The position numbers were made by a program, and so were the translations under genes. The notes beneath the pieces were generated by a model. The model did not search any database. It was not told the origin of the DNA and worked only from the letters and a program-made list of their open reading frames with translations. Below are positions 5,893 through 25,349 of a DNA stretch of 32,000 nt, piece by piece; the stretch's first letter is position 1, and every line of letters starts with the position of its first letter. Source of the stretch: Candidatus Heimdallarchaeota archaeon (lineage in GTDB: Archaea > Asgardarchaeota > Heimdallarchaeia > Hodarchaeales > Hodarchaeaceae); assembly GCA_048881705.1 (NCBI GenBank), contig JBHLSH010000027.1, positions 9,563-41,562 of the forward strand, read 5' to 3'.

Positions 5893-6345
5893 TTGGAGTA
5901 TAACCATCAACTTCGGATTGTGGGCACTGATTGCCCAGGTGATTGGTTGATTAGCCGAGCTTTAACAAAAATAAGAGGCGTTGGTTATCGATTGGCAATC
6001 CAGATCTGTGAAAAGGCCGAAATAGATCCAGATATGCGTTGCGGATTCCTCACCGATGATGAGGTTCAATTAATAGAAGATATTATGGCTTCGATTGAAC
6101 AATGGGGCGTTCCAATATGGATGCTTAATCGTCAAAAGGATCTTGTGACTGGTGAGGATCTTCATTTGGTGGGTACTGATTTAATAGATTCACTCCGAGT
6201 TGACGTCGAACGAGAAAAGAAAACACGCTCCTGGCGCGGAATACGGCATTATTTAGGGCTACCTGTGCGCGGACAACGGACGAAAACATCCGGCCGTAAA
6301 GGCGCTACTATTGGAGTCACTCGAAAGAAAAGAATGCAACCGTAA
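5893..6345 (+). CDS. rps13: Ribosomal protein uS13
   Basis: RIVGTDCPGD...ALTKIRGVGYRLAIQICEKAEIDPDMR...SWRGIRHYLGLPVRGQRTKTSGRKG is the uS13 signature. An in-frame TGA at 5884-5886 leaves TTG 5893 as the first possible start. Confidence 0.9.
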   Translation: MEYNHQLRIVGTDCPGDWLISRALTKIRGVGYRLAIQICEKAEIDPDMRCGFLTDDEVQLIEDIMASIEQWGVPIWMLNRQKDLVTGEDLHLVGTDLIDSLRVDVEREKKTRSWRGIRHYLGLPVRGQRTKTSGRKGATIGVTRKKRMQP

Positions 6346-6358
6346 CGGTGATGAGAAG

Positions 6359-6898
6359 TTGGGTGATCCTAGAAGATTACGAAAAAAATACGTTGGACCG
6401 CGTCATCCATTTAGTAAAATCAGATTTGAGGAAGAGATCAAGTATATCGGGATCTATGGTCTTCGTAACAAGAAAGAGATATGGAAGGCCCAAACAACCT
6501 TGCGTAAGTACAGATCTCGTGGTCGCAAATCTCTCGCCTTACCAGAACAACAGCGTGAAAAAGAGAGAGAAATCCTTGTTCAAAAACTGTATAAATTGGG
6601 CATCATGCCTGTAGAGGATGGATTAATAGATGAAGTTCTCTCTTTGTCCGTGGAACGCATTTTGGAACGTAGATTACAGTCCGTTGTACACGAACTGGGT
6701 CTTGCCAAAACACCTTGGATGGCTCGACAACTTATTGTACATGGCCATGTTGCCATCGGAGACAGGAAAGTTACCTCGCCGAGCTACCATGTTAAACGCG
6801 GGGAAGAAGAACTGATTGCATATTCGCCAGACTCACCTTTCAATGACCCTTCCCATCCTGCCCTTACTCTGCCGACATCAGAGGGAAGATCTGGATAA
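6359..6898 (+). CDS. rps4: Ribosomal protein uS4
   Basis: (M)GDPRRLRKKYVGPRHPF...IYGLRNKKEIWKAQTTLRKYR plus a C-terminal S4 RNA-binding domain (LQSVVHELGLAKTPWMARQLIVHGHVAIGDRKVTSPSY). I place the start at TTG 6359 because archaeal uS4 begins MGDP.K.RKKY. The track's 6311 start would overlap uS13. Confidence 0.88.
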   Translation: MGDPRRLRKKYVGPRHPFSKIRFEEEIKYIGIYGLRNKKEIWKAQTTLRKYRSRGRKSLALPEQQREKEREILVQKLYKLGIMPVEDGLIDEVLSLSVERILERRLQSVVHELGLAKTPWMARQLIVHGHVAIGDRKVTSPSYHVKRGEEELIAYSPDSPFNDPSHPALTLPTSEGRSG

Positions 6899-6926
6899 AC
6901 ACTTATGACTATGGAGACGAAAAATT

Positions 6927-7328
6927 ATGTCCAAAAATGTAAAAGGGCCAATGCAAGCCATTGCCCATATCCTGAGCTCTTATAACAACACCATAATCAC
7001 CCTTACTGATATGACTGGCGCAGAAACCATTGCCAAGTCCTCTGGAGGACAAGTAGTTCGAGCAGACAGGAATCAATCCTCACCTTATGCTGCTATGAAA
7101 GTCGGGCATACCATTGCCCGTGTTGCTAAGGAAAAGGGAATTCAACAGATTGTGGTTAAGGTACGGGCTCCAGGTGGTTCTGGTGCTCGAAATCCTGGCC
7201 CTGGAGCTCAGGCTGCCATCAGAGCCTTGGCCAGGTCAGGCCTACATATTACTCGCATCGAAGAGGTCACACCCATCCCCCACGATAGTACTCGCCAGCG
7301 GGGTGGGCGTCGGGGTCGAAGAGTTTAA
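6927..7328 (+). CDS. rps11: Ribosomal protein uS11
   Basis: [29 protein letters not shown]...[21 protein letters not shown]...VKVRAPGG...[30 protein letters not shown] matches the uS11 pattern. Confidence 0.92.
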
Positions 7329-7357
7329 TTTCATAAGTTTCCCTGAAATCATAGGAT

Positions 7358-8359
7358 CTAAAGGACTATGTTCCGAGCTCGCCCCCATAAAGATGGATAA
7401 CTATAAGGCCGCATAAAAACGGTTCGAGGGCGAGCACAAATGCCAGTTGAGCCGTTTAAGATTTCTTTGGTGCTCATCGTGCCTTGGGCAAAAGCAACTA
7501 ACTCTCCCTTCATTGTCATTATAGCAATCATAGTTTTGTCAGAAATCCCATTTGTTACACGGACCACACCAGGAAGCGTCAGCGCTGCGCCGTGACAAAT
7601 CGCATCAACCGCGGAATCACGAATAAAAAGTTTGGGAAGGCTAGAACAAAGAATCTCAGCTGGTTGTACAAATTTGCGGATTAGGGTTTCATCGCCTTCC
7701 ATCTTGTAATAATACCATGCATCTCTGAGATCATCCAATGTGACACATGTCGTCTCTGTGAACACCCCTGTTTGTGTTCTTCGAAGTTCAGCCATATGAG
7801 CTCCAGTGCCAAGAACCAGACCAACATCATAGCATAACTTGCGAATATAGGTACCTGCTTCACATTTCACACGAAGTAGCCATAACTGGTTTGAAGGATC
7901 GTTTTCGATAAAATCTAGCTCGTAAATCTGCCGGACACGCAATCTTCGTTTAACATTACTCCTTAGCGGAGGAGTTTGATATATCTTACCTCTGAAATCA
8001 TCTATGACAGTAGCTAGTTGGATCTTAGAAATCGGTTCATGAGTTTTTAAAACGCAAATGTATTCTTTACCTGAAAGTAGTAAAACCTGGAGAGCTCGCG
8101 TTGCACGTTCAAGAGCTACAGGTAGGCATCCAGTGACTGAGGGATCTAAGGTTCCCCCATGTCCCGCCTTTTTTAGACCAAGGATCTGCTTTACCCAGGC
8201 AGTTACTTCATGAGAAGTTGGATTGGCTGGCTTGTCGATATTTATAATTCCTAAATCTAAAAGTTCGGGAATCGACCTTTCCTGAGGCGTTATTCCAAAT
8301 GATGGGTCTGTTTCATATTCCTTAACCTTCTCATACAGAACCCGAGGATGAGGATCCAT
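7358..8359 (-). CDS. cbf5: H/ACA RNP pseudouridine synthase Cbf5 (TruB family with C-terminal PUA domain)
   Basis: INIDKPANPTSHEV...KKAGHGGTLDPSVTGCLPVAL (TruB catalytic Asp motif), GTYIRKLCYDVG, and a PUA-like C-terminus (KLFIRDSAVDAICHGAALTLPGV). Confidence 0.92.
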   Translation of the reverse strand: MDPHPRVLYEKVKEYETDPSFGITPQERSIPELLDLGIINIDKPANPTSHEVTAWVKQILGLKKAGHGGTLDPSVTGCLPVALERATRALQVLLLSGKEYICVLKTHEPISKIQLATVIDDFRGKIYQTPPLRSNVKRRLRVRQIYELDFIENDPSNQLWLLRVKCEAGTYIRKLCYDVGLVLGTGAHMAELRRTQTGVFTETTCVTLDDLRDAWYYYKMEGDETLIRKFVQPAEILCSSLPKLFIRDSAVDAICHGAALTLPGVVRVTNGISDKTMIAIMTMKGELVAFAQGTMSTKEILNGSTGICARPRTVFMRPYSYPSLWGRARNIVL

Positions 8360-8523
8360 TATCTATCCCGTAATTTGGGCTTATAACCAGGCGGCCGTCA
8401 ATTATAAAGCAAGACAGCATCGAGTGAGAGGAATTAAGAACGAAAGAAAACAGTTTCCGTCTTCTAGAACTAAAGCAAATGAAAAAGAGTTAAATTTTGT
8501 GTACGAGGAAATGTGCGCTTTAT

Positions 8524-8799
8524 TCAGGCCAGAGAGAGTGGTTGTTTGATTTCGTCTGCAATATTTGCTTTTTCGATCGCTGTTCCAATTTCCTCGTCTT
8601 TGGCTCCCCTTTTGATTTTCACAATGATGTCTAACGGCCGCAAATGCTTGATGTTACATCTTCGTCGTTTAACAGTCGAAACTCCACCTCCAGAGATCAA
8701 AACAAAATTCTTGTCAACCAAATCGACAATTACACCCTTCTGTAAAGCTTCACGGCCAGCAGTTTTCACTACGACTCTACCAACTTCAATTGCAGCCAT
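8524..8799 (-). CDS. rpl14e: Ribosomal protein eL14
   Basis: MAAIEVGRVVVKTAGREALQKGVIVDLVDKNFVLISGGG...VKRRRCNIKHLRPL matches archaeal L14e (M.AIEVGR.CVK..GRE.G...VIVD..D.NFVLV.G....VKRRR.N..HLEP). ATG 8799 is preferred over the upstream TTG 8814. An ATATAATTTA element lies 17-27 nt upstream. Confidence 0.88.
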   Translation of the reverse strand: MAAIEVGRVVVKTAGREALQKGVIVDLVDKNFVLISGGGVSTVKRRRCNIKHLRPLDIIVKIKRGAKDEEIGTAIEKANIADEIKQPLSLA

Positions 8800-9017
8800 T
8801 ATCTTTACCTTCAATAAATTATATTCCCAGATTGGGGTTTTTTGATGCAGAAACAGTTGAAATATACTGCATCAACGGCGGAATGTTGACTTATTCTTCA
8901 TACGTCCGGTTTTTCCCTGATTTGACCTTGGTTTTTAACTTTCACGCATTCTTAAAACAAAAAAAGTTCAGACTTTTAATACAAATTCTCGTATCAAAAA
9001 ATCCTCTGAGAGACCTC

Positions 9018-9025
9018 TTATAAAA
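9018..9025 (+). promoter_or_regulatory. TATA-box candidate (TTATAAAA) for tRNA-Thr
   Basis: AT-rich octamer centred about 30 nt upstream of tRNA position 1 (9052), the usual archaeal TATA-to-start spacing. Confidence 0.4.
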
Positions 9026-9051
9026 TCACCTACAGTTCCCGGTCATTGTAG

Positions 9052-9146
9052 GCCGCTGTGGCTTAGCTGGTAGAGCGACAGACTCGTATGGTTCTACTCG
9101 AATCCGAAAGATCTGTTGGTCGGGGGTTCAAGTCCCCCCAGCGGCT
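9052..9146 (+). tRNA. tRNA-Thr(CGU) with a 22-nt intron at the canonical 37/38 position (intron 9089-9110)
   Basis: Hand-folded. Acceptor GCCGCUG/CAGCGGC, discriminator U. D arm GCUU-AGCUGGUA-GAGC. Anticodon stem ACAGA/UCUGU with loop CU-CGU-A. T arm GGGGG-UUCAAGU-CCCCC. The intron folds into a bulge-helix-bulge: 3-nt bulges UAU (9087-9089) and AGA (9109-9111), a central helix 9084-9086/9105-9107 plus one C-A mismatch, and an inner helix GGUUC/GAAUC (9090-9094/9100-9104). No encoded CCA. Confidence 0.85.
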
Positions 9147-9172
9147 TTCCATTTCTCTCGGGCGAGGGATAC

Positions 9173-10021
9173 CTATTTCACCCAAGTTGAATTCATAAAA
9201 TCGTCGTATGTTACGATCTGGACAGGAATAAAGCTGTCAAGAATTTCGGTCATTTTCTTCACGCTAAATTGATAATCCTCCCATACACCCTGTTTTTTTT
9301 CTAGAGTTGGTAGGATAGATTCAAACTTCAAAAAATACTCTTTCAATCTTTCTTTCCATACCCCGCGACCCCTTCTATCAAGTCTATAGATGATAGGGGT
9401 TGGTATTTCGTGGATATGAAGTTTAGCATGGGATGCATAATTCCAGTAGACGAGGGGGAACGTATAGCCCTCCGCATCATCAAGACGTGCTGGAATCTTT
9501 GTAGTACGATAACCTTTAAGGCCACAAAAAGCATCTGTGACCTGAAGGTTTAAGCATCGATTTATCGCTCGTGTGAGAAACATATTGGTGAGATATCTAT
9601 CAATAGGGACTGGAGTGTTTCGATCCCAGAATCGATAGGATAAATACCGGCTAGTTGATACTACGTCTATATCAGACTGATTTTCCATAATCTGAATAAT
9701 TTCCTTAATGGTACTCGGCGCGTGTTGCAGATCTGCATCAAACGTAATCAGGATATCAGATTTGTCTCGGGCATACTCAAATAGCGTGAGAATGGTTGCA
9801 CCGTAGCCTCTGTTGATTGCAGTTCGGATGTAACTGAACGGAAATTTGCGAGCCAACCTCTCATAAACACCTTGTGATCCATCGGTGCTGGCATCGTCGA
9901 CCAAACAAATTTGAATGTCATAATCTTGGCATTCCTTTTCAAGAAATGCGTAAAGGGAACTTACACATTCTGCAAGGTATGATTCCTCGTTCCAGATAGG
10001 TATCCCTATGATTATTATCAT
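9173..10021 (-). CDS. Family 2 glycosyltransferase (dolichyl-phosphate sugar synthase-like)
   Basis: MIIIIGIPIWNEESYL...ICLVDDASTDGS...ITFDADLQH are the typical GT2 N-terminal motifs (P.YNE, DD.S.D.S, D.D). ATG 10021 is preferred; a TTG at 10033 is possible. Confidence 0.8.
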   Translation of the reverse strand: MIIIIGIPIWNEESYLAECVSSLYAFLEKECQDYDIQICLVDDASTDGSQGVYERLARKFPFSYIRTAINRGYGATILTLFEYARDKSDILITFDADLQHAPSTIKEIIQIMENQSDIDVVSTSRYLSYRFWDRNTPVPIDRYLTNMFLTRAINRCLNLQVTDAFCGLKGYRTTKIPARLDDAEGYTFPLVYWNYASHAKLHIHEIPTPIIYRLDRRGRGVWKERLKEYFLKFESILPTLEKKQGVWEDYQFSVKKMTEILDSFIPVQIVTYDDFMNSTWVK

Positions 10022-10158
10022 CTTGTTTTCCAATTTTGAAAGAAATCCCAGGGCAAGACCAGAAACCTTTTGAGATATACTACTTAAAACCCTCGGATTC
10101 TTTTTAAGAAGCTTCTTAAAGTTCTCGATTCAAGATTACAGATGAGGTCATCTTATTG

Positions 10159-10584
10159 ATGGACGAGGATCCCGTTCTTGCTAATCTTCTAAAGAAAAGG
10201 GCGTTATCTATGAAAAAAAATGCAGAGACATTTGCGAATCTTGATCTTAATAGAGTAAATGACGTCACTGACGCGGATATTGACGAATACCTACGTACTT
10301 CTCCCGTACCAGTTCTAGTAGATTTTTCAGCTGACGCCTGGTGTCGGCCTTGCCAGGTAATGAACCCTATCCTTGAAGAGTTGTCTCATGAGTTTGCTAA
10401 CCGGGTTTTATTCTTAAAATTGAACACAGATCATAATCCTGTTGCATCTAGTAAATATCGGATATTTTCGGTTCCTACGTTCATGGTTTTCAATGCCGGA
10501 AACCGAATCGCCCAACGAGTGGGGGCTTCACCAAAATCAAAATTCAAGGCCTGGATAGAGGAGGTTGTAGAGAGACTACAATAA
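10159..10584 (+). CDS. Thioredoxin-fold protein with WCRPC active site and about 45-aa N-terminal extension
   Basis: PVLVDFSADAWCRPCQVMNPILEELSHEF...LFLKLNTDHNPVASSKYRIFSVPTFMVF matches the thioredoxin pattern (V.F.A.WC.PC....P.L..L......V.....D.......Y.I...PT...F). Confidence 0.8.
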   Translation: MDEDPVLANLLKKRALSMKKNAETFANLDLNRVNDVTDADIDEYLRTSPVPVLVDFSADAWCRPCQVMNPILEELSHEFANRVLFLKLNTDHNPVASSKYRIFSVPTFMVFNAGNRIAQRVGASPKSKFKAWIEEVVERLQ

Positions 10585-10618
10585 CCTGATTGCTAATAAA
10601 ATATGAGACGGGTAGCTT

Positions 10619-10687
10619 ATGAGAGAAAAATGGAAAAAAAAGCGCTTAAGAAGACGAAAACGGAAAGAACGCAAACGAACCCGTTGA
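10619..10687 (+). CDS. rpl41e: Ribosomal protein eL41 (22 codons; below the ORF-track length cutoff)
   Basis: ATG AGA GAA AAA TGG AAA AAA AAG CGC TTA AGA AGA CGA AAA CGG AAA GAA CGC AAA CGA ACC CGT TGA translates to MREKWKKKRLRRRKRKERKRTR. Compare the eL41 consensus MRxKW(K/R)KKRxRRLKRKRRKxR. Confidence 0.7.
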   Translation: MREKWKKKRLRRRKRKERKRTR

Positions 10688-10856
10688 TTTCTTGGTGTCA
10701 AGCCCTAGGATTTGAATAAGGAATTTTCCACCTCAATGTCTTCCACAGATTATTAAGCGTCAAACGTGAATAAGAGGTTGGAGAATTGCTCATAAAACTC
10801 CATGTGTCCTCTGCAACGGTCACACACTCCAATCTTGATGATTGGATGCGAAAAAA

Positions 10857-11981
10857 ATGATTGTTGGTTTGATAGGCGCCCGCGGCACGGTACCAACAGA
10901 TGCTATGGCCACTGTATCCTTTTTGGTAGATCACAAATATCTGTTTGAATGTCCATCCGAAATCATTCCAGCGTTTGATAGGTTCCAAAAAGAATGGGCT
11001 CGAATTTCTGTCCACAAAAGCCCTCCTCAACTCGCTGCATTGGGACGTCCGACACTAGGTAAGGTTCGATATGTCATAATATCCCATCTCCATTATGATC
11101 ATTGGGGTGGACTTCCTCACATTATTCATCGAATCCTATTATTAGAACGAGAGGCGAGGGAGAGAAGGCCGCTATCGATTATTATCCCAAAGGGATCCAC
11201 AATCCCATTTCAATTACGGATGCAAGCTTTGTTTTCTCTCCAAGAATCAAACCTACCACTTTCAGATGTTGAATTCTTATACTATTGGCTTACAATCGAA
11301 GTAGGTGCTGCTATTCGAAAAGTTGTACGTATAATTAGCATTGAGGATGGTGATGTTGTTCCTCTGGATCCTGGATACTTTTTATCCTGTAAAAAGAACC
11401 CTCATCTTGAAATTGGTTCTGTCGCCTATAAACTGATCTTCCGGAAACCCAAACTGGATGTAAACAGGGCCAAATCGCTGGAAATTCCTTTCAACAGAAC
11501 CTTGAAACGGATTGAGAAAAGTCAATCTCCCGTTAAGGTAGGGGATATCTTCGTCTCCCGAAATGACATTTATTTTGATTTAACCAAGACATTATGTTAT
11601 TCCGGAGATACAAATGTTGATTCAGGTTTATTTGAGTTCTTCAGAGATGCCCAAATTCTTATTCACGAGGCAACATATCTGACCAAACAAAAAAACTTCC
11701 ATCTGGAGTCTCATTCGGATCTTGATAGTTTAATTCCTGAAATCGAGAAGTTAAAGGATCCAGCGACACTGTTGGGGTTTATCCCCATCCATTTTTCAAC
11801 CCGTTATAAAGAAGAAGAAATATCAATGCATCTAAGCCAGCTTTCGAAAGACCGAATGAATCTTTGCCAAGTCATTAATCCTATTGTGACCTTATATGTC
11901 TTAATAACGGATTACGGGCACCTAGATTTCATTGAACGTCCTCAAAAATCACTTGCAAACCACTCTGAAACTGATCGATAA
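10857..11981 (+). CDS. Metallo-beta-lactamase fold hydrolase (RNase Z/ELAC-like, divergent)
   Basis: MIVGLIGARGTVP...FLVDHKYLFECPSE... and the HxHxDH motif ISHLHYDHWGG; later IHEATY and IPIHFSTRY. ATG 10857 is preferred over TTG 10842. Confidence 0.65.
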   Translation: MIVGLIGARGTVPTDAMATVSFLVDHKYLFECPSEIIPAFDRFQKEWARISVHKSPPQLAALGRPTLGKVRYVIISHLHYDHWGGLPHIIHRILLLEREARERRPLSIIIPKGSTIPFQLRMQALFSLQESNLPLSDVEFLYYWLTIEVGAAIRKVVRIISIEDGDVVPLDPGYFLSCKKNPHLEIGSVAYKLIFRKPKLDVNRAKSLEIPFNRTLKRIEKSQSPVKVGDIFVSRNDIYFDLTKTLCYSGDTNVDSGLFEFFRDAQILIHEATYLTKQKNFHLESHSDLDSLIPEIEKLKDPATLLGFIPIHFSTRYKEEEISMHLSQLSKDRMNLCQVINPIVTLYVLITDYGHLDFIERPQKSLANHSETDR

Positions 11982-12799
11982 CCTACACTTTTGGCTAGCC
12001 TACGGAGAAGCTTGACGGTTCCCGATCCATACTGCATCGCCTTTTTAGGCTGCAAAATAGCTTTCTGAGGTATGCCAAGTTTGAATGCGCACTTACGGAG
12101 GATATTTTTGCGAATAATCACTCCTCCGGGCATCTGGTGGAGATGAGCGCTAATGGATTGAGATTGGGCATATTTAACGATTCGAGAGTCCAGATATGGA
12201 TATATGGGTTTTAGCCCGAAAAAATCGGCAATTTTGGTTTCTATCTTTGTCTGCTGGATCATAAGTTTGTTAAAATCGTGATTCATAGCTTTTTGGGTTG
12301 CCTCCATCCCTTGTTCAGTATATAGGGTGATATATTTTTTGTAACCAGCAAAAAGTTCATCTGCACCTTGACCAAGAAAAACCGTCTTTAATTTCGGGAT
12401 TTTCACCAAAGTGCGCATTCCAAGAAAGAGGGGGATAACAATCGCAAGATCTCCTGGATTGGTTATAATTCTAAGCTGGCGTAAATCAGCGATAGCCTCA
12501 ATTAAAATCCTTTCAGATAGATAACAAAGTGATAATGGAAGATTGATTGCTGCAGCCATCGTAAGAGCATTATTCAAATCATAACTACCTGGAGCTCCAA
12601 CCGAAACTGCCTGTACCCCTGATGGAGGGAACTGAGATATTAGAATGTGAGCTATAACAGTGGAATCCAGGCCACCACTGTAAAGTAATCCAACCGTATC
12701 TTCCTGTTGCAAATAAGTTCCGATTGTTTGATGAAGTGACTCAATAATTGTTTCCATTGACAGCTGATCCGTAATATAATTAAGAATCCAGGAATGCAT
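11942..12799 (-). CDS. Asparagine synthetase-like PP-loop ATP pyrophosphatase domain protein (no glutaminase domain)
   Basis: PP-loop VGLLYSGGLDSTVIA and the AsnB-type motif LGQGADELFAGYKKY. The 3' end overlaps the convergent MBL gene by 40 nt. Confidence 0.7.
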   Translation of the reverse strand: MHSWILNYITDQLSMETIIESLHQTIGTYLQQEDTVGLLYSGGLDSTVIAHILISQFPPSGVQAVSVGAPGSYDLNNALTMAAAINLPLSLCYLSERILIEAIADLRQLRIITNPGDLAIVIPLFLGMRTLVKIPKLKTVFLGQGADELFAGYKKYITLYTEQGMEATQKAMNHDFNKLMIQQTKIETKIADFFGLKPIYPYLDSRIVKYAQSQSISAHLHQMPGGVIIRKNILRKCAFKLGIPQKAILQPKKAMQYGSGTVKLLRRLAKSVGYRSVSEWFASDF

Positions 12800-12833: not shown

Positions 12834-13529
12834 TTGACGGTGTCGGATTTGGATCAAGCATCTCCCAAAAGCGGGCTGAGAAAGAAATATGAAGCGTTTT
12901 TTGCGCCGTTTGGGAGATTCCTCGCAGATACACGGCTTTCACCCAATATGATTTCTCTTTTAAGTCTAGGTACTAGTGTCATCAGTTGCCTTGCTTATGC
13001 TTTCGGTCCAGCAATTGGAATGACTGTAGGGTTACTGGTTGGAACTCTTCTCCTTGGGTTTTCTTCCTTACTTGATATGCTGGATGGAAGTTTGGCACGG
13101 GCTAAAGGTGTAACAGGCCATTTTGGAGCTCTTTTGGATCGAACTCTTGACCGGGTATCTGAGTTTTTCTTTCTTTTGGGTATAATGTTGGGGGGATATG
13201 TTCACGCTGGATTGGTGTTTTTCGGTTTTGAAGGAATGGTGTTGGCTAGTTATGTTCGGGCCGCTGCGGAAGAACGTGGGGGCCTAAAGATGACTTCCAC
13301 AATCGGAATTTTTGAGCGAAAGGAGAAACTTACCCTCTTAGCAATGGGGTGCGTAATTGAAGCCTTTTTTTATCAAGGATTCGTCTGGATGCCCCCTTCT
13401 TGGTGGCCCTTCTCATTTGGTATTCTGCCCATAGTAATTATTGTAATTGGGCTGTTTTCGAACCTGTCTGCAATACAACGTTTACGTTACGCCCGCGCTT
13501 TTTATTCTTCTGGTAAAAAATCCCCGTAA
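12834..13529 (+). CDS. CDP-alcohol phosphatidyltransferase family protein (archaeal polar-lipid head-group synthase type)
   Basis: Signature D-x2-DG-x2-AR-x8-G-x3-D-x3-D seen as LDMLDGSLARAKGVTGHFGALLDRTLDRVSE, with multiple TM helices. TTG start. Confidence 0.8.
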   Translation: MTVSDLDQASPKSGLRKKYEAFFAPFGRFLADTRLSPNMISLLSLGTSVISCLAYAFGPAIGMTVGLLVGTLLLGFSSLLDMLDGSLARAKGVTGHFGALLDRTLDRVSEFFFLLGIMLGGYVHAGLVFFGFEGMVLASYVRAAAEERGGLKMTSTIGIFERKEKLTLLAMGCVIEAFFYQGFVWMPPSWWPFSFGILPIVIIVIGLFSNLSAIQRLRYARAFYSSGKKSP

Positions 13530-13558: not shown

Positions 13559-14872
13559 TCATCGGGGGCGGGTAATCTTGATCCTATTCTTACAGATTGG
13601 ACATTTGGCGTTAATTTTCAACCATTCGGCAAGATGGGCATAATGGGCTGGCGATCCACACTCAGGACATCTTACTAAGGATCTATTCTCAGAAATTGGC
13701 ATCCTGCATACGGTGCAAAATTCTTCGACTTCCTCCATGAAATCGGTGTCAACGCCGTTAGATGTACCCACTTGAGAGCCTACGAGAATATTTGCTCTTC
13801 TTAAAAACGATTCTGCGGCCTGTGGAGCTAAGGAACGGGCACGATCCGCAGCACGACGATATAGTTTGGCTGCATACGTTGGATTGGTTTCTTCGTTCGC
13901 CAAACCCGCCTCTGCCAGAATAGGCGTAGGAGTGTCTGTTCCTAGGCTATCTAACAGCTCATCGTAAAGGGCTATTGCCTGATTAGTTTCTTTCTTTCGT
14001 AAAATATCTCTTGCCGAATCTAGGATTTTAAGAATCCTCTCATATTCCTTGATGGTTTTCAAATGCTTGGTAAATTGTTCTGGAATTATCTTCTTTTCCT
14101 GATCTGGCAGATTATCACTAATATTTTTGACGATAGCAAGACTCCTTCGCATTTGTTCTATCTCCCCTTTCTCTAAGTGATTAGTAACATTATTCAGATA
14201 ATACTGTAGGGCAACCCCTGATTGTCCAGCTGAGGTCACATATTGCCTAGCAACATCGTCCAAGCCTTTTTGCTTCATCTCTGTTGCTGCAGCTATTAAA
14301 ACTGCATTTGCTTCCTCTTCCGCCCCAATTGTACGAAGAAGTTCAGCTGCTTCCATAAATTTCTGGTTATTGTACGCATGCTTTGCTAAATTACGAATTG
14401 CTTGGTCACGATCATGAATGAGAGAAAGATTCTGATCTATTACCTGAATGGCTGCTGGAACGTAATCTATTCCTGAATCGGTAAAAACTTTGGCTGCAGC
14501 AAAAGGTTTTTTGGCTAATACAAATGCCTTGGCCGCAGCATGAGGATCCCGCTGTGCAAAGTTTGATCTTGCCAATCTAAGGAAAGCTCGCTCTAACTTC
14601 TGGCTAGGAAAACGGCTTTCCAGCCTCCTTAGGGCGAGTACTTGGGATCCTTCTGGGCTCCGAAGTACCAATTTCGCTGACTCTTCTAGAGAATGGCGAG
14701 CTAGGAGATCGAGTGCATCCATATATTGTCCTCGTTCTTCTAGGTTTTGAGCCTGCTGTATATACTTGGACTTATTCTTTCGGGTAGTTAACCAAATTAT
14801 AATAACGATTACAGATCCAAATACTATAAGGAGACTTGGATTATCCATGCCACCCATCAATTGATTGAACAT
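13559..14872 (-). CDS. N-terminally membrane-anchored helical-repeat (TPR/HEAT-like) protein with C-terminal cross-brace RING/PHD-like zinc finger
   Basis: TM segment SLLIVFGSVIVIIIWLTT; about 340 aa of Ala/Leu-rich helical repeats. The C-terminus is C-TV-C-x12-C-PE-C-x4-H-YA-H-LAEWLKINAK-C-PI-C (residues 386-427, nt 13592-13717). That is eight Zn ligands spaced like RING-H2/RING-CH/PHD, including the H-x2-(C/H)-L-x2-W-L...CPxC signature. Confidence 0.75.
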   Translation of the reverse strand: MFNQLMGGMDNPSLLIVFGSVIVIIIWLTTRKNKSKYIQQAQNLEERGQYMDALDLLARHSLEESAKLVLRSPEGSQVLALRRLESRFPSQKLERAFLRLARSNFAQRDPHAAAKAFVLAKKPFAAAKVFTDSGIDYVPAAIQVIDQNLSLIHDRDQAIRNLAKHAYNNQKFMEAAELLRTIGAEEEANAVLIAAATEMKQKGLDDVARQYVTSAGQSGVALQYYLNNVTNHLEKGEIEQMRRSLAIVKNISDNLPDQEKKIIPEQFTKHLKTIKEYERILKILDSARDILRKKETNQAIALYDELLDSLGTDTPTPILAEAGLANEETNPTYAAKLYRRAADRARSLAPQAAESFLRRANILVGSQVGTSNGVDTDFMEEVEEFCTVCRMPISENRSLVRCPECGSPAHYAHLAEWLKINAKCPICKNRIKITRPR

Positions 14873-17895: not shown

Positions 17896-18684
17896 CTACA
17901 CAAAAAACTGGGAATCCGGGTCGCTTGGTTTGTTTTGATCCATTTTGCCTTCTAATGTGCTTGCATAATGGGCTTTGAATTCTTGGGCTTTCTCTTCCAA
18001 TCTACTAAAATTCCCAGTAAATCCCCATTGCTCCGATAAGTGTAATAATAGCGCGTACGACGAAATCGGGTCATACTCTGGGAAAGTATCTACCACAAAC
18101 ACTTCTACTGGGATATTATTTCCCCAATAAGTTAGGAAAGAGCATGCGATCTGTCCACAGAGAGTAAACGAATCACCCGCGGTAGTCATCTCACTTGTTA
18201 CCTCTAAACGCTGTTCATTTGAAGCAATTTTATGTACACGAGGTTTTTTATCGATGGAACGATTACTGTTGTATACCCCATCCACCAACAGAATCTTTGT
18301 GACTTTATGTTGCTGGTAAAAACGAAAGAGCTCCTCTGCTATTTGATATCCAATTGCATCGGGAATGGCAAAATTGGTTGTAGCAAGGAAATAGGGGCGA
18401 TCTCGAATTTCCAAATATTGAATTGTGATTGGAAGTAGTATGTCATTTGAGGACAATTGTACCATTTCGGTCATGTGGTTCGTAAAGAATCCTGCCAATT
18501 TGTTCATTTGTGAGGTCGTGCGTCGAATTTCATGAGCCACCAAATGGCCAACTGAACCATAATACCCCAAAATTTCGATTGCCACGGCACCGACTGGCGG
18601 GACAAATTCGTTTCGAATGAGAAACCTTAGATTTTCCTCTTCTTCCATTTCTTCCAAGAGAGTTTCCACATTCGGTACTTCCAT
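17896..18684 (-). CDS. Hypothetical protein, tentatively PAC2/PbaA-family (proteasome assembly chaperone-like)
   Basis: The ORF is solid, sitting 14 nt after the cdc48 stop and 11 nt before the next gene. The family call rests only on size (262 aa) and an N-terminal pattern, VAIEILGYYGSVGHLVAHEI, resembling the PAC2 G.PG.G.VG..A motif. The C-terminus ends ...DSQFFV. Confidence 0.4.
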   Translation of the reverse strand: MEVPNVETLLEEMEEEENLRFLIRNEFVPPVGAVAIEILGYYGSVGHLVAHEIRRTTSQMNKLAGFFTNHMTEMVQLSSNDILLPITIQYLEIRDRPYFLATTNFAIPDAIGYQIAEELFRFYQQHKVTKILLVDGVYNSNRSIDKKPRVHKIASNEQRLEVTSEMTTAGDSFTLCGQIACSFLTYWGNNIPVEVFVVDTFPEYDPISSYALLLHLSEQWGFTGNFSRLEEKAQEFKAHYASTLEGKMDQNKPSDPDSQFFV

Positions 18685-18698
18685 ATTATATGCACAGT

Positions 18699-20894
18699 CT
18701 AATGGTTTTCATGAGGAGGTCGAATGAAATCAAGCGCTTGAACAACATCAGCAGGCTCTATCTCCAGTTTATACTTTTCAATCAATTTGGATATCGCGTC
18801 TGGTTGAACCCCATCAAGCATCTCCTTTCGATCTTGAAGAAATCGGTTAATAGAGACGAAAGTTGCACGACTTATCAGTCCTTTCAAATCTGCGCCGCTG
18901 AAACCTTCAGTTTTTTTTGCTAAGTCTTTCAATAACACTTGTTTTGATAATGGTTTATTTCGAGTCAGTACACGTAGAATATTCTCTCTCGCGGTTGTAT
19001 CGGGCAGAGGGAGCTCAATTATTCGTTCAAACCTTCCGGGCCTTAAAAGTGCTGGATCAAGCACGGAAGGACGGTTAGTTGCTGCAATAACAATAACATC
19101 CCGTAACTCTTCCAAGCCACTCATTTCCGTCAACAAAGTGGTTACGATACGATCTGAAGCACCCCCATTCAAGCCAGATCCAGAACGAGATGGAGTTAGG
19201 GCATCGATTTCATCAAAGAAAATGATGCAGGGAGCACCCAGACGGGCTTTTCGAAAGGTCTCTTGAATAATTTTTTCGCTCTCCCCCAACCACTTAGAGT
19301 GGACTTCTGATCCCTTTACATAGATGAAATTCCGCGAAACCTCATTTGCGATGGCACGGACAAGTAGGGTTTTCCCAGTTCCAGGTTTTCCAATCAGAAG
19401 GATCCCTCGCGGCGCTTCTGCATCCATATAGTTGAACAGATCAGGATATTTTGCTGGCCATTCGATAATCTCCTTGAGCTCATGCTTAACATCGTCTAAT
19501 CCTCCTACATCTTCCCATGTAACAGTAGGGATTTCGAGGAAAACTTCCCGGAGAGCACTGGGTTTAACCTCCGCTAAGGCATTATTGAAATCCTCTTGTA
19601 AAACAGTTATTTGTTCAATTATTTCAGCAGGAACATCTTCATCCCAAGTTATCTGGGGAAATACTCTCCGAATCGAACGCATAGCAGCTTCCTTGGTTAA
19701 GGAAGCCAAATCGGCACCGACAAATCCATGGGTACGATCAGCCAGTAATTCTAAATCCACTTCATCTGCTAATGGCATTGCTCTAGTATGAATCCCCAGA
19801 ATAACTAAACGACCATCTTTATTGGGTACTCCAATCTCGATTTCACGGTCAAAACGTCCCGGCCGACGAAGCGCGGGATCAATTGCATTGGGCCTATTCG
19901 TTGCTCCAATTACAACTAATTCTCCCCGGCCTTCCAAGCCATCCATAAGCGCCAACAATTGGGATACTACTCGACGTTCAAGTTCCCCTGAACTAGAGTC
20001 ATCCCGTTTGGTGGCTATGCTATCAATTTCGTCAATAAACAGGATACTCGGTGCCTTTTGTCTAGCCTCCTCGAATATATCTCTAATCTTCTGTTCACTC
20101 TCTCCATAAAATTTGGACATGATTTCTGGCCCAGAGACCGTTATAAAATATGCATCAGTTTCATTCGCCACAGCCTTGGCTAGAAGTGTCTTGCCAGTTC
20201 CGGGTGGGCCATGGAGGAGGACTCCTTTTGGAGGTTCTATCCCAAGTCTTTCAAATAGTTGGGGATAGCGCATTGGCAATTCAACCATTTCTCTGATCTT
20301 CTTGATTGTTTCCTCCATTCCCCCAATTTCTTCATATGAAACTTTGGGTACAACCTGCATTTTACTTAAAGTTTCAGAAAAGGAATCAGGAGTCTCTTTT
20401 ACTTCAAATACAGTAGTTTTAACGATATATACTGAGTGTTCTCTTTCTGGGACAATCTTAAGAACTTTATAGTCAATATTTTGTCCCATGTAGGGTACCC
20501 GAAGCACGTCATCAATAGAAATCGCACGGTCTTGAAGAGTCTTTTGAAAATATCCAGTTACGTTACTTATTGTGAAATTAGACAATGGAGTTAGGATGAT
20601 TTTCTCTGCTGGACTGAGGGATACCTTACTAACTGTGACAATATCGTCCAGTCGAACCCCTGCATTTGATCGGGTCGCCGCATCAATCGAAATGGTTAAT
20701 CCATATTCATCGGATTTAAATGCATGCCAAATTACCGCGGTCGTTTTCTTTTCCGTAGGTCCCTCGATCTCTATTATATCACCTGCTGATACCCCTAATT
20801 TGTTCATAATACGTTTTGAAATCCGTGCCCGACCCCGATCAACATCTTGGTAGGCGGCTTCCTTGACTTTTAGCCTAACTGAGTTTGAAGCCAA
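18699..20894 (-). CDS. cdc48: CDC48/VCP/VAT-type AAA+ ATPase (N domain plus D1 and D2)
   Basis: N domain MASNSVRLKVKEA...RGRARISKRIMNKLGVSAGDIIEIEG. Two Walker A motifs (GPPGTGKTLLAKAVA and GKPGTGKTLLVRAIA). Two Walker B motifs (ILFIDEIDS, IIFFDEIDA). SRH regions (VIGATNRPNAIDPALRRPGRFDR, VIAATNRPSVLDPALLRPGRFER). TTG start. The C-terminus ...RPPHENH has no HbYX motif. Confidence 0.93.
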   Translation of the reverse strand: MASNSVRLKVKEAAYQDVDRGRARISKRIMNKLGVSAGDIIEIEGPTEKKTTAVIWHAFKSDEYGLTISIDAATRSNAGVRLDDIVTVSKVSLSPAEKIILTPLSNFTISNVTGYFQKTLQDRAISIDDVLRVPYMGQNIDYKVLKIVPEREHSVYIVKTTVFEVKETPDSFSETLSKMQVVPKVSYEEIGGMEETIKKIREMVELPMRYPQLFERLGIEPPKGVLLHGPPGTGKTLLAKAVANETDAYFITVSGPEIMSKFYGESEQKIRDIFEEARQKAPSILFIDEIDSIATKRDDSSSGELERRVVSQLLALMDGLEGRGELVVIGATNRPNAIDPALRRPGRFDREIEIGVPNKDGRLVILGIHTRAMPLADEVDLELLADRTHGFVGADLASLTKEAAMRSIRRVFPQITWDEDVPAEIIEQITVLQEDFNNALAEVKPSALREVFLEIPTVTWEDVGGLDDVKHELKEIIEWPAKYPDLFNYMDAEAPRGILLIGKPGTGKTLLVRAIANEVSRNFIYVKGSEVHSKWLGESEKIIQETFRKARLGAPCIIFFDEIDALTPSRSGSGLNGGASDRIVTTLLTEMSGLEELRDVIVIAATNRPSVLDPALLRPGRFERIIELPLPDTTARENILRVLTRNKPLSKQVLLKDLAKKTEGFSGADLKGLISRATFVSINRFLQDRKEMLDGVQPDAISKLIEKYKLEIEPADVVQALDFIRPPHENH

Positions 20895-22784: not shown

Positions 22785-23540
22785 TTGAGTTTAGTCGAAA
22801 GAATACGTAAGATGGAACTATCACTTGATGAAATAATACCTAAGTTCCAAGGAAGGTTAGAACTAGTTCGTAAGGATCTAAAGGATTTAATAACTGGCAT
22901 AGATGATTTGAAAACGCTTATTGCAGATAATCGTCGAAAATCAAATGATTATACAAGAGAGATTTCTGATCTATCTAATGACCTTCAAGCTTTTAGAAAT
23001 GAAATCACCGAGATCGAGAAAGAGATTTCCCGATCACAAGATATGGCCAATACCGTCAATATGGAGACACAGGAATTAAATAGCGAACTGATGGCGGAGA
23101 GAAACCGGTTAGGAACTCTCGAAGGAGAGAAAAACGCGCTAGAACACAGTTTAAGTGAGCTCGAACGGGAGAAATCTGGATTACAGGAAATTCATGATCA
23201 ATTCAAGCCGAAATTTGAAAAAGAAGTCGGCTTAATCAATGAACGATACGCTTCGCTCAAGAAGAAACATGATTCGCTTGGTTATCGTTTCCAAGCTATG
23301 CGTATCCTCTGTTCTGAGGGTTATCTCGCGACCCCAGAGGTGAATATAGTAAGGTACCTCGCTATGAAGCCGTCTTCGACATCAAGCGTGACTGAAATTA
23401 AATCTACGCTTGGCGTTGATCCAACAGCGTTATCTACGGTTCTTCATGGCCTGGCCACACGGCAGGTACTTAAATTGGACGAGTCCTCAGGTAATGTTAC
23501 AATACTTGCCAAAATTGATCTATTTGACGAGGTGAAATAA
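22785..23540 (+). CDS. Coiled-coil protein with C-terminal winged-helix-like domain (paralog 1), uncharacterised
   Basis: About 170 aa of heptad-rich E/K/L/N/R sequence, then VRYLAMKPSSTSSVTEIKSTLGVDPTALSTVLHGLATRQVLKLDESSGNVTI (helix-turn-helix plus wing pattern). TTG 22785 or ATG 22812. Confidence 0.65.
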   Translation: MSLVERIRKMELSLDEIIPKFQGRLELVRKDLKDLITGIDDLKTLIADNRRKSNDYTREISDLSNDLQAFRNEITEIEKEISRSQDMANTVNMETQELNSELMAERNRLGTLEGEKNALEHSLSELEREKSGLQEIHDQFKPKFEKEVGLINERYASLKKKHDSLGYRFQAMRILCSEGYLATPEVNIVRYLAMKPSSTSSVTEIKSTLGVDPTALSTVLHGLATRQVLKLDESSGNVTILAKIDLFDEVK

Positions 23541-23542
23541 TA

Positions 23543-24277
23543 ATGGATACCGATACACTACGCGAGAAGTTCATTCGATCCGAGGAAGCGCTCAACAAAC
23601 TCGCAGATGACATCAAACAGCTGGTTTCCAGTCAGAGTCAAGAACTACGAGATTCTCGTGATTACCTTGAAACCTTGATAGGAGAAAAAGAAGCTGTTGA
23701 CTCGCAAATCAAAGAACAGGAAGCTAAAATTGCATCATATCAAGAAGATATCTCCAAACAAGGTAATTTAAAAGAAGCTTTAGTTAATAAACGATCTATG
23801 GTTTCAGAGGATAGCCAAAATAAGAAGATTAGGCTAGAGGAACTTCATCATGAATTAACCACAGTAAAAGATTCTGTTACTTCCACCAATCGTGTAATAG
23901 AACAATTAAGGATGGAAATTACACAGAAACGTGAGCATATTGGAGAGTTAATCCAGGCAAACCAAGAATTAGAAGAAAAATTAAAAATTGAGATGGATGT
24001 AAAGGTGACCGAGACGGGAAATCTAGAACAAGCTGTAGCTAATATGGAATCAGAAAATGCTGTAATCTCATATCTTCTTGAAGAGTCGGCGGAGGATATT
24101 CCTGAAGTGGATATTTTAGCCTCAGTAATGCAATTAGGTGAGGCCAGTAGAGATCAATTGAAACAATCCCTCGAAGGAATTGTGTCACCGGTCATGCTTA
24201 CACGAACGCTCGGACGGATGGCTGAAAAAGGAATCCTTAACTTCGATGAGTCTCGTGATATTATTAGATATCAGTGA
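23543..24277 (+). CDS. Coiled-coil protein with C-terminal winged-helix-like domain (paralog 2), uncharacterised
   Basis: Same architecture as the upstream gene, with C-terminus ILASVMQLGEASRDQLKQSLEGIVSPVMLTRTLGRMAEKGILNFDESRDIIRY. The ATG is 2 nt after the upstream stop (TAATAATG). Confidence 0.65.
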   Translation: MDTDTLREKFIRSEEALNKLADDIKQLVSSQSQELRDSRDYLETLIGEKEAVDSQIKEQEAKIASYQEDISKQGNLKEALVNKRSMVSEDSQNKKIRLEELHHELTTVKDSVTSTNRVIEQLRMEITQKREHIGELIQANQELEEKLKIEMDVKVTETGNLEQAVANMESENAVISYLLEESAEDIPEVDILASVMQLGEASRDQLKQSLEGIVSPVMLTRTLGRMAEKGILNFDESRDIIRYQ

Positions 24278-25349
24278 GGCGGAGATTATCACGATTTCCG
24301 AACTGAGTAATAAACCCGAAAATTTGCATGAAGATTGGGTTTTCCATCGAACTCTTTCATCAGGAAAAACCCAGTGTCTGGTATGTGCCCGCCATTGTCA
24401 CTTGATTTCGGGAGAGACTGGATGGTGTGGTGCACGGATGTGTCAGGAAGGGAAAGTTGTCCCTAGAACGTATGGTTTGGTCTCTTCCGTTGCTGTTGAC
24501 CCGATTGAGAAAAAACCCCTTTACCACTTTTTACCTGGAACGGGTATTCTTAGTATTGGTGCTACTGGGTGTAATATGGGATGCCTTCATTGTCAAAACC
24601 ATTCTATATCCCAGAGTCGCTCTATCGCTCATCTCCGAAGGGTATCTCCTCGTGAACTCGTAAATCACGCATTGGAAAGGAATTTGCCCTCAATCGCTAG
24701 TACATATAATGAACCCATGATTGCGTTTGAATATGTTAGGGATATTGGGAGGATTGCCCATCAGGACGGATTGAAAATGGTGGTTGTCGATAATGGCTAC
24801 ATTAACAGGGGGTTGGCAGAAAGACTCACAGCTTATCTAGATGGGGCTAATATTGACGTTAAAGGGTTTTCTGACGAATTCTACTGGGAAATCTGTGATG
24901 TGAAGGCATGGAAGCTCGTTTTGAAGACCTGTGAGACTTTTTTCAACCGGGGCGTGCATTTAGAGATAACTAACCTCATTATCCCCACTAAGAATGATGA
25001 TATGGAGATGATCAGGGGTATGTGTGAATGGATCGTGACCAAACTCAGCCCAAATGTACCCCTTCACTTCTCAGCGTTTCACCCAGATTATAGATTGAGG
25101 GATCTACCCTTTACTCCCATGAAAACATTGGAAGATGCCTTAACGGTTGCCAAGGACGTAGGGCTTAATTATGTATATCTTGGGAATGTTAGAGGTCGTA
25201 AAGGTAACGACACTTACTGCCATAACTGTCACAGCCATTTAATCTCTCGTACCGGGTATTATACGAGGATACTTGGAATTACTGAAGGTAGGTGTGCTAA
25301 ATGCAACACGAAAATCCCAGGAATCTTCTCTAATTCAGATCCGGCTTAA
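24246..25349 (+). CDS. AmmeMemoRadiSam-system-type radical SAM enzyme (PflA-related)
   Basis: CLVCARHCHLISGETGWCGAR...YGLVSSVAVDPIEKKPLYHFLPGTGILSIGATGCNMGCLHCQNHSISQS carries the N-terminal Cys cluster plus the CxxxCxxC radical SAM motif typical of this family. A C-terminal CHNCHS...CAKC zinc ribbon is present. The start is uncertain: ATG 24246 overlaps the previous gene by 32 nt, and the track gives 24180. Confidence 0.8.
   Translation: MSLVILLDISEAEIITISELSNKPENLHEDWVFHRTLSSGKTQCLVCARHCHLISGETGWCGARMCQEGKVVPRTYGLVSSVAVDPIEKKPLYHFLPGTGILSIGATGCNMGCLHCQNHSISQSRSIAHLRRVSPRELVNHALERNLPSIASTYNEPMIAFEYVRDIGRIAHQDGLKMVVVDNGYINRGLAERLTAYLDGANIDVKGFSDEFYWEICDVKAWKLVLKTCETFFNRGVHLEITNLIIPTKNDDMEMIRGMCEWIVTKLSPNVPLHFSAFHPDYRLRDLPFTPMKTLEDALTVAKDVGLNYVYLGNVRGRKGNDTYCHNCHSHLISRTGYYTRILGITEGRCAKCNTKIPGIFSNSDPA

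Follow-up and report, generated by a model that had tools for sequence, protein, structure and literature searches.

The gene described here was found in a Candidatus Heimdallarchaeota archaeon, on a 32,000-nucleotide stretch of contig JBHLSH010000027.1 (positions 9,563 to 41,562), which was analysed at its full length and is called the window below. The open reading frame (ORF) 13559..14872 on the minus strand, with an ATG start, encodes a protein of 437 amino acids (aa), laid out as one N-terminal transmembrane (TM) helix, an alpha-solenoid of about 335 aa, a disordered linker and a C-terminal C4H2C2 domain. The protein is most likely a membrane-bound ubiquitin ligase (E3) of a known type in an uncharacterised architecture. 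Its features, in window coordinates, are as follows.

13559..14872, minus strand: whole gene, encoding the 437-aa protein with TM helix, alpha-solenoid and RING domain.
14783..14839, minus strand: N-terminal TM helix, residues ~12-30, predicted to be N-out/C-in (hydropathy, family charge pattern).
13775..14782, minus strand: predicted cytoplasmic alpha-solenoid, residues 31-366, ~19 helices, TPR-like (AlphaFold2, predicted local distance difference test score (pLDDT) mostly 80-97).
14288..14620, minus strand: most conserved helical core, residues ~85-195 (invariant and near-invariant columns among homologues).
13730..13774, minus strand: flexible linker, residues 367-381 (pLDDT <50; length and sequence variable in the alignment).
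13583..13723, minus strand: C-terminal RING domain, residues 384-430 (Pfam, PDB profile matches, domain model).

The eight-ligand motif was read directly at residues 386-427 as C386-x2-C389-x12-C402-x2-C405-x4-H410-x2-H413-x10-C424-x2-C427, and the segment from C386 to R437 comprises exactly the last 52 residues of the protein, as the first-pass annotation (made from the sequence alone) had described it. The whole protein contains six Cys, and all six are ligands. A family alignment of 35 homologues (30-82% identical overall) was used for the assessment of conservation; the eight ligands, together with E416, W417, L418, K419 and P425, are invariant in 35/35 homologues, and the ligand spacing 2-12-2-4-2-10-2 is conserved in all members except one (34/35). 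Because the ligands are invariant and the spacing is kept to this extent, the motif is, as judged from the alignment, not a chance pattern.

Pfam comparison of the isolated domain gave two matches above the cut-offs, zf-RING_2 with an end-to-end match (31.5 bits, cut-off 27.3) and Prok-RING_1 (PF14446) with a match at profile positions 4-32 of 54 only (35.8 bits, cut-off 29.1), and both were matched by every one of the 35 members (zf-RING_2 with E values of about 1e-5). When the family profile was run against PDB chains, RING-H2 E3s were retrieved, namely Arkadia (1.3e-6), RNF24, RNF165/Ark2C and RNF38 (1e-6 to 1e-3), and further matches were obtained with RLIM, RNF126, RNF13, gp78, Hrd1 and Rbx2. 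In the alignment with Arkadia, C405 falls on ligand 3, S407 stands where the ligand-4 His of RING-H2 sits, H410 falls on ligand 5, H413 on ligand 6 (Cys in RING-H2), W417 on the Arkadia Trp and CPIC-K on CPIC-R. Seven of the eight ligands thus align with RING-H2 ligands, and ligand 4 comes from the other side of ligand 3. On the basis of this alignment to RING-H2 structures, the putative cross-brace sites would be C386/C389/H410/H413 for zinc 1 and C402/C405/C424/C427 for zinc 2, with C402, from the CPxCG knuckle, probably replacing the usual ligand 4 (His in RING-H2).

An AlphaFold2 model of the isolated domain (pLDDT 88) consists of two short hairpins and a central helix. The best 50 matches of this model in a Foldseek search of the PDB were all RING/U-box domains (TMq 0.6-0.72), and the best crystal structures (RNF165, RNF12, Hrd1 and RNF125) superimposed with a root-mean-square deviation (rmsd) of 1.7-2.4 A over about 50 residues; for 5ulh_C, the rmsd was 2.0 A over 52 columns with a TMt of 0.80. 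The domain is therefore modelled as a cross-brace RING with the interleaved beta-beta-alpha fold, and the earlier description of a cross-brace, RING-type finger resembling RING-H2 was borne out by the Pfam, PDB profile and domain-model matches. The spacing had also been read as closer to PHD or RING-CH, which was not supported by the searches. The PHD finger profile scored 17.2 bits against a cut-off of 24 and was matched at positions 1-26 of 47, the sixth ligand of the window domain being His, and PHD structures were absent among the top 50 Foldseek matches of the domain model. RING-CH/RINGv (MARCH-type) was rejected as well, with no RINGv match among the best 25 of the 92 families that were matched by the isolated domain at E<=10 or among the best 25 for the whole protein, and with a differing spacing.

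The residues predicted to contact the ubiquitin-conjugating enzyme (E2) were compared among the 35 members. Position 388 is V in 33 and I in 2, W417 and P425 are each present in 35/35, and the linchpin position 428 is occupied by K in 28, R in 4, Q in 2 and G in 1.

The window RING was then compared with the small RINGs of ubiquitin operons. The relative P0116 is an 82-aa stand-alone RING with a family-profile score of 87 bits. An ungapped BLASTP alignment over 52 residues gave 52% identity between P0116 and the window RING, and its gene lies in an operon for RING, ubiquitin, E2 and the ubiquitin-activating enzyme (E1), beside Vps28, UEV/Vps23-like, EAP30 and ESCRT-II genes (ESCRT-I/II, endosomal sorting complexes that are required for transport). 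An Asgard E2 alignment was scanned against one genome per species, by which 80 new loci were obtained; the E2 loci span Hermod-, Thor-, Baldr-, Hel-, Jord-, Frey-, Odin-, Borr-, Sif-, Atabey-, Kari-, Heimdall- and Hodarchaeota. With a hidden Markov model (HMM) of the family C-terminal domain alone, a small RING (70-130 aa, 1e-9 to 1e-27) was detected at 46 of 82 Asgard E2 loci. The full set of RING, ubiquitin, E2 and E1 is present at 38 of these 46 loci, and the ligand spacing of the window RING is exactly matched in 40 of the 46 small RINGs.

For the srfp of Caldiarchaeum subterraneum, C3/H4 out of register and an extra Cys ('C3B') have been described (Hennell James et al. 2017, PMC5654768). 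This protein is needed for substrate ubiquitylation in the reconstituted Caldiarchaeum cascade in vitro, in which activity is lost with the I30Q mutation and is impaired by W58A and R69A (PMC5654768). The residues I30, W58 and R69 of srfp correspond to V388, W417 and K428 here, respectively, and the distance from the Trp to the linchpin is 11 residues in both. Shared features are the C4H2C2 ligands with the spacing 2-12-2-4-2-10-2, the CPxCG knuckle giving the 'extra' Cys, [VI] after Cys1, the EW[LIV]K motif, CPxC and an often basic linchpin. Because the spacing is identical in 40/46 operon-type small RINGs and the extra Cys has been described for srfp, the ligand layout is not the possibly novel subclass that had been proposed but the standard RING of Asgard ubiquitin operons, and the RING type and its E3 function are already known (PMC5654768). 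The window protein shares the srfp domain but is not an srfp orthologue. Whereas srfp is a soluble, stand-alone protein of 70-130 aa encoded within a ubiquitin operon, the window RING stands at the C-terminus of a 437-aa membrane-anchored solenoid protein whose gene lies among housekeeping genes, with no ubiquitin, E1 or E2 gene in the window.

The absence of ubiquitin, E1 and E2 genes from the window, which had been noted before, was confirmed by Pfam comparison of 20 flanking ORFs and by six-frame HMM scans. It poses no problem for a role in ubiquitylation, because E2, a small RING and ubiquitin-E1 are present elsewhere in orthologue-bearing genomes. The chromosome CP070760.1 (L078) carries the orthologue P0024 and the B3_Heim metagenome-assembled genome (L080) carries the orthologue P0052, and both encode E2, small RING, ubiquitin and E1 within about 7 kb. 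At six loci of this Hod type (L073, L075-L078 and L080; ~6000-12450), a small RING lies about 3 kb from an E2 with the HxN...C motif, and a ubiquitin ending in -TRTTGG lies about 2 kb beyond the small RING; E1 starts directly downstream of ubiquitin, matches the Asgard operon E1 model at 1e-36 to 2e-91 and is visible as far as the locus end. A single-sequence E2 search and an E1 search had missed the closed Hodarchaeales-type chromosomes, and E2, small RING, ubiquitin and E1 were found in them by the alignment-based scan and inspection of the locus ends. The conjugation machinery is therefore present for the lineage, as observed in the orthologue-bearing genomes rather than in the window's own genome.

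In the Hodarchaeales-type genomes, the ubiquitin genes are dispersed rather than arranged in a tight operon, and the small RING is on the opposite strand to E2. The intervening ORFs at L078 are a metallo-beta-lactamase-fold gene, a gene for a coiled-coil protein and an ORF that resembles Arf/Rab-like GTPases (by its sequence only). The small RINGs of the Hod type read H-x2-H-MLRWLAKK, not HLAEWLK.

The TM helix predicted in the first-pass annotation was found again by hydropathy analysis, with a mean Kyte-Doolittle value of 2.28 over the 19-aa window from residue 12, and a TM-like N-terminal segment is present in 35/35 homologues (mean 2.8); three long family members have two hydrophobic segments. 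The flanks of the segment in the family carry a negative or zero net charge before it and a positive one after it (RKNKSK here). Because of the positive net charge on the C-terminal side, the charge pattern implies an N-out, C-in topology, by which the solenoid and the RING would be cytoplasmic. The annotated ATG (window 14858-14872) may not be the true start, and most homologues start aligned with M6 to M9 (MNGE...); the alternative start would shorten the 437-aa protein by 5-8 residues and leave the TM helix unaffected.

A full-length AlphaFold2 model was built with the 35-sequence alignment (mean pLDDT 85). It contains 20 helices over residues 12-365, of which the first (12-46) is continuous and starts as the TM segment, and a small beta-beta-alpha domain at residues 385-430 that holds all of the strands of the model. 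There is no beta-propeller in the model, the N-terminus being the TM helix. In the Foldseek search of the PDB, the best matches of the full-length model were subunits of intraflagellar transport complex A (IFT-A) at 8.4e-6 to about 1e-4 (8bbg_A (IFT144) at 8.4e-6, then 8fgw_A, 8bbe_E and 8f5o_B), closely followed by generic TPR proteins (OGT at 5.7e-5; designed CTPR, LGN, P58IPK and LapB, the last at 9.4e-4) in a range extending to 1e-3; the TM-scores of the full-length matches were low (0.15-0.29). The fold of the modelled solenoid thus appears TPR-like, which agrees with the helical repeats reported earlier.

At the sequence level, the solenoid gave no significant match in Pfam or, with the family profile, among PDB chains; the best non-RING PDB matches, both non-significant, were ribosomal protein S20 (0.04) and IFT122 (0.99). 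Weak TPR-type Pfam matches were recorded for TPR_2 (15/35 members, best 0.0033), ANAPC3 (17/35, best 4e-4) and TPR_WDR35 (13/35, best 2.4e-5), and weak zinc-finger matches for Zf_2nd_IFT121 (22/35, best 0.044) and zf-Vps39_C (12/35, best 1.4e-3). The most conserved part of the solenoid, residues ~85-195, carries the motifs KPFAAAKV, PAAIQ, RDQAIRNLA.HAYN and EAAELLR.IGAEEEA.AVLIAAA.

Homologues were grouped at 90% identity into 78 clusters, nearly all of which are full length (413-528 aa). The named sources of the clusters are all Asgard, mainly Hodarchaeales/'Hodarchaeota'/Heimdallarchaeota, with a few labelled Thor- or Odinarchaeota, and some orthologues carry the automatic labels 'E3 ubiquitin protein ligase', 'RING finger protein' or 'TPR repeat protein'. 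The family profile was searched against 1.84 billion representative proteins (50%-identity library), and 20 representatives were matched at E<1e-30 (family level), 193 at E<1e-10 and 1806 at E<=0.001. Remoter full-length members are labelled Hermodarchaeota, Heimdallarchaeota, 'Asgard group' or Promethearchaeota. The best 150 representatives, judged from the matched region and length of the 150 and the sequences of 16, included no recognisable eukaryotic solenoid protein. A short form (~270-380 aa) consists of a TM helix, a low-complexity spacer, the helical core, a linker and the C4H2C2 RING; its core matches profile positions ~80-195 with domain E-values of 1e-6 to 1e-16, and residues ~85-195 are the sole part of the solenoid that is kept in these shorter relatives. 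Because the short forms keep just these parts, the conserved unit is the TM helix, the helical core of about 110 aa and the RING, which occur across Asgard archaea in long (~430 aa) and short (~300 aa) forms.

Inspection of 147 of the best 150 representatives for RING motif, TM segment and core showed that the C4H2C2 motif is identical to that of the window RING in 135/147, the canonical RING-H2 motif being present in just one. The general statement that RING-type fingers are rare in archaea does not hold for this Asgard organism, given this share and the 1806 proteins matched at E<=0.001. A TM-like segment was found in 89/147 relatives, and the solenoid core was also matched in 41/147; many representatives match in the RING part only, at 60-120 bits against the family profile. 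Attachment to the membrane is a recurring theme among RINGs of this type. With about 60% of the examined representatives TM-like, the data suggest that in Asgard archaea many different N-terminal regions have become joined to the operon-type RING. Among the relatives, P0103, P0110, P0112, P0117, P0118, P0121, P0122, P0125, P0127 and P0132 are multi-RING or large proteins. The multi-RING ones have two or three C4H2C2 RINGs per polypeptide, several of them with a TM segment, and the large ones (586-966 aa) have unrelated N-terminal regions and a terminal RING; together they suggest a diversified repertoire of RING-E3s.

The window protein is probably a single-pass membrane protein with a cytoplasmic solenoid and RING that serves the Asgard ubiquitin system as a RING-type E3. 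The earlier reading as an E3 remains plausible. In the proposed mechanism, the C-terminal RING would bind two zinc ions in cross-brace fashion (C386/C389/H410/H413 and C402/C405/C424/C427) and dock the cognate E2~ubiquitin thioester via V388, W417 and P425, with K428 holding E2~ubiquitin in the closed, reactive state. The membrane-tethered alpha-solenoid, chiefly its core at ~85-195, may bind substrates or adaptors at the membrane, and these would then receive ubiquitin as a mark for sorting by ESCRT or for removal through Cdc48/proteasome; either fate of the substrates, sorting or extraction, is a matter of speculation.

Several observations weigh against a ligase function. The full-length protein lies just under the Pfam cut-offs (zf-RING_2 26.1 vs 27.3 bits, Prok-RING_1 27.5 vs 29.1), and the match to Prok-RING_1 is the partial one given above. 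AlphaFold leaves zinc unmodelled, and the pairing of the ligands rests on the RING-H2 alignment, not on measurement. K or R is missing at the linchpin position in 3/35 members, the gene never adjoins ubiquitin, E1 or E2 and has housekeeping neighbours, and the biochemical evidence for E3 activity comes from srfp, not from TM-solenoid-RING proteins. Moreover, solenoid-fused RINGs in eukaryotic trafficking complexes are often assembly modules, not ligases.

A non-catalytic scaffold was weighed as an alternative, in which the solenoid and the finger form an assembly or tethering module of a membrane complex and the RING serves for protein contacts (e.g. RING-RING pairing), as in the zinc-finger tails of IFT-A, the HOPS/CORVET Vps proteins and GATOR2. 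It would account for the rank of the IFT-A subunits as best Foldseek matches of the full-length model (8bbg_A, 8.4e-6), for the recurrent weak matches to TPR_WDR35, Zf_2nd_IFT121 and zf-Vps39_C in the family, for the C-terminal finger of WDR19 in the PDB sequence search (E=0.15) and for the position of the gene outside ubiquitin operons; a solenoid plus a RING is also a recognised protocoatomer-derived layout (PMC4678705). However, the TM-scores are low (0.2-0.29) with generic TPR proteins nearly equal (OGT, 5.7e-5), the solenoid has no significant match at the sequence level and the protein has no beta-propeller, while the strict conservation of the E2-contact and linchpin residues would be unexpected for a purely structural finger and the RING is 52% identical to the operon-encoded E3 type (P0116). 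The scaffold is thus considered unlikely. The likeness to protocoatomer-type solenoid-plus-RING tails is an architectural parallel, with homology unproven. Less probable again is the far-reaching extension of the ligase reading, by which the TM-core-RING family would be an Asgard-wide ancestral membrane E3 choosing cargo for ubiquitin-ESCRT or Cdc48/proteasome, with its solenoid-RING module related to the HOPS/CORVET, GATOR2/SEA and IFT-A tails, as a prokaryotic antecedent of a protocoatomer-associated module or of a ligase of the type used in endoplasmic-reticulum-associated degradation.

In a ubiquitin-free alternative, the protein would be a LapB-like adaptor whose TM helix, TPR-like solenoid and zinc domain present lipid-biosynthesis enzymes or membrane proteins to an FtsH-, Lon- or Cdc48-type protease or unfoldase. 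The order of these elements is shared with LapB, the Foldseek matches include the YejM/LapB structure 7t6d_B (9.4e-4), a weak match to the NCBIfam LapB model was obtained (E=0.0031, 16.7 bits), and a convergent archaetidylinositol-phosphate-synthase-like gene adjoins the RING gene in the window (12834-13529) and its relatives at L001 and L004/L005. That score is far under the 395-bit cut-off of the LapB model, though, and the zinc domain is predicted to be a binuclear RING that bears an E2-binding signature, unlike a mononuclear rubredoxin; the lipid-synthase gene, being convergent, is not co-transcribed and is absent at L003, L088 and L090. The adaptor is very unlikely on these grounds. Scarcely credible is a generic zinc ribbon or nucleic-acid finger, in the form of two independent ribbons of C4 or C2H2 type carried by a membrane protein that has nothing to do with ubiquitin: the weak Pfam matches to Zn_ribbon_6, DZR and Zn_ribbon_3 (E 0.0015 to 0.35) and the name 'Zn-ribbon RNA-binding protein' given by JGI to one small relative speak for it, but all of these Pfam matches are below the cut-offs and cover single CxxC knuckles, the structural check for sequential ribbons gave RING/U-box domains only among the top 50 matches, and RING features are seen in the central helix and in the invariant EWLK motif.

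Several other known systems resemble the putative membrane E3 in part. Eukaryotic RING-H2 E3s (Arkadia/RNF111, RNF165/Ark2C, RNF38 and RNF24) share with it the predicted cross-brace beta-beta-alpha fold, ligands 1-3 and 5-8 in register, the Trp (at the position of Arkadia W972), a hydrophobic residue following Cys1 and the CPxC[RK] ending; they differ in that the window domain has, in place of the C-x-H His, a Cys as ligand 4 that lies three residues upstream of ligand 3, and ligand 6 is His, not Cys. A membrane anchor with a cytosolic RING is found in the plant ATL family, the PA-TM-RING protein RNF13 and Hrd1 (also gp78), and the plant ATL-like protein P0209 was matched at 60 bits by the family profile, but ATL and RNF13 are without a counterpart to the solenoid between TM and RING. 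Prok-RING_1 is a C4HC3-type prokaryotic RING, and prokaryotic RINGs with a C4-type first half are covered by Pfam and have been reviewed (PMC11354881). Its likeness is to the N-terminal half of the window domain, where CxxC...CPxCGxPxH fits about half of the 54-position profile, whereas the C-terminal half (H-x2-H-LAEWLK...CPxCK) fits zf-RING_2/RING-H2, which is matched end to end.

Protocoatomer-derived proteins (IFT121/122/144 of IFT-A; Vps8/11/18/39/41 of HOPS/CORVET; GATOR2/SEA; alpha-COP) are likewise membrane-associated and have a TPR-like solenoid followed by a terminal zinc finger; the window protein has a TM helix in place of their beta-propeller, and the similarity is statistically inseparable from a generic TPR resemblance. 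LapB/YciM has the same linear architecture and a cytoplasmic orientation on the membrane, with weak structural and NCBIfam matches, but LapB holds one zinc in a rubredoxin knuckle pair and has FtsH as its partner, in contrast to the predicted binuclear, ubiquitin-operon type of RING here. CHIP/STUB1 also couples a TPR-type peptide-binding module to an E2-binding domain of RING fold in one polypeptide; it differs in being soluble and in having a zinc-free U-box and three canonical TPRs, and no sequence relationship to it was detected.

In the literature that was searched, no published description was found of a conserved TM-helical core-RING architecture across Asgard archaea, which is not proof of novelty, and none of abundant TM-anchored proteins among the carriers of the operon-type RING. 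Eme et al. (2023) mention, without detail, only 'a few homologs' of Vps11/16/18/39 among Asgard archaea. The gene repertoire of Asgard archaea includes ubiquitin, E1, E2, small RING E3s and ESCRT-I/II that binds ubiquitin. A conserved membrane-anchored E3 with a large protein-binding solenoid would be a concrete candidate for the selection of substrates, notably membrane proteins, at the membrane, and it would be directly testable with the reconstitution assays established for the Caldiarchaeum cascade. The fusions of the operon-type RING would amount to a eukaryote-like diversification of E3 ligases. If the solenoid-RING module were indeed related to the tails of HOPS, GATOR2 or IFT-A, it would be relevant to how the endomembrane machinery of eukaryotes arose.

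The neighbours of the gene in the window encode a CDP-alcohol phosphatidyltransferase, an Asn-synthase-like protein, TmcA, a helix-turn-helix (HTH) protein, PAC2, Cdc48, Hsp20, an S-adenosylmethionine (SAM) hydroxide adenosyltransferase, a radical SAM protein, Prok-JAB, a beta-CASP nuclease, NfeD and a MutS-like protein, and the entire block is syntenic in the closed chromosome CP070695.1 (L001). Ubiquitin, E1 and E2 genes were not found beside the window gene or its relatives at the loci examined (L001, L003, L004/L005, L088 and L090). A dedicated ubiquitin operon around the gene was ruled out by these housekeeping neighbours and the window scans, and the neighbourhoods point to no functional partner.

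Prok-JAB (JAMM) at 25346-25771 and Cdc48 at 18699-20894 are near but not adjacent, as had been pointed out. A specific link of the RING gene to either was rejected, since they lie 4-11 kb off in the same long block of housekeeping synteny, which also occurs in L003. The Prok-JAB/MPN gene (minus strand) is flanked by a radical SAM gene at 24180-25349 (plus strand) and a beta-CASP RNase gene at 25821-27209 (minus strand), and these neighbours are unchanged at L003 14984-17910, where the relative at the RING locus is distant; Prok-JAB therefore belongs to a conserved block and is not linked to the RING gene.

The CDP-alcohol phosphatidyltransferase gene stands tail-to-tail with the RING gene in the window (12834-13529, plus strand) and in CP070695.1 (L001 11324-12004), and it also adjoins the 30%-identical relatives at L004 (11754-12467) and L005 (6954-7667). 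It was not found beside the relatives at L003, L088 and L090. Among NCBIfam models it fits archaetidylinositol phosphate synthase best (129.7 bits), a score under the cut-off of 180. The adjacency may be residual synteny or may hint at a link to lipid synthesis.

A 251-aa coiled-coil protein is encoded at 22785-23540 (plus strand), with weak ATG16 (4e-7, below the cut-off) and ATG17-like matches that are probably coiled-coil noise, and it is followed at 23543-24277 (plus strand) by a gene for a 244-aa protein without a Pfam match. This gene pair is conserved in L001; at the equivalent position L003 has genes of similar size (249-251 aa), which are without a Pfam match there.

Directly upstream of the RING gene and on the same strand, with gaps of 10-146 bp, a Glu/Gln-tRNA synthetase gene (tRNA-synt_1c) was found in three divergent lineages (L003 8127-9854, L004 8182-9915, L005 3382-5115 and, beside a short-form relative, L090 5242-6990). 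Two tandem tRNA synthetase genes are present at L003, and TmcA is upstream instead in the window. Cdc48 is followed immediately by the PAC2-family gene (proteasome assembly chaperone 2-like), the HTH regulator and TmcA in the window (17896-20894, minus strand) and at L001 3287-6302, so that the order Cdc48-PAC2-HTH-TmcA is preserved in CP070695.1.

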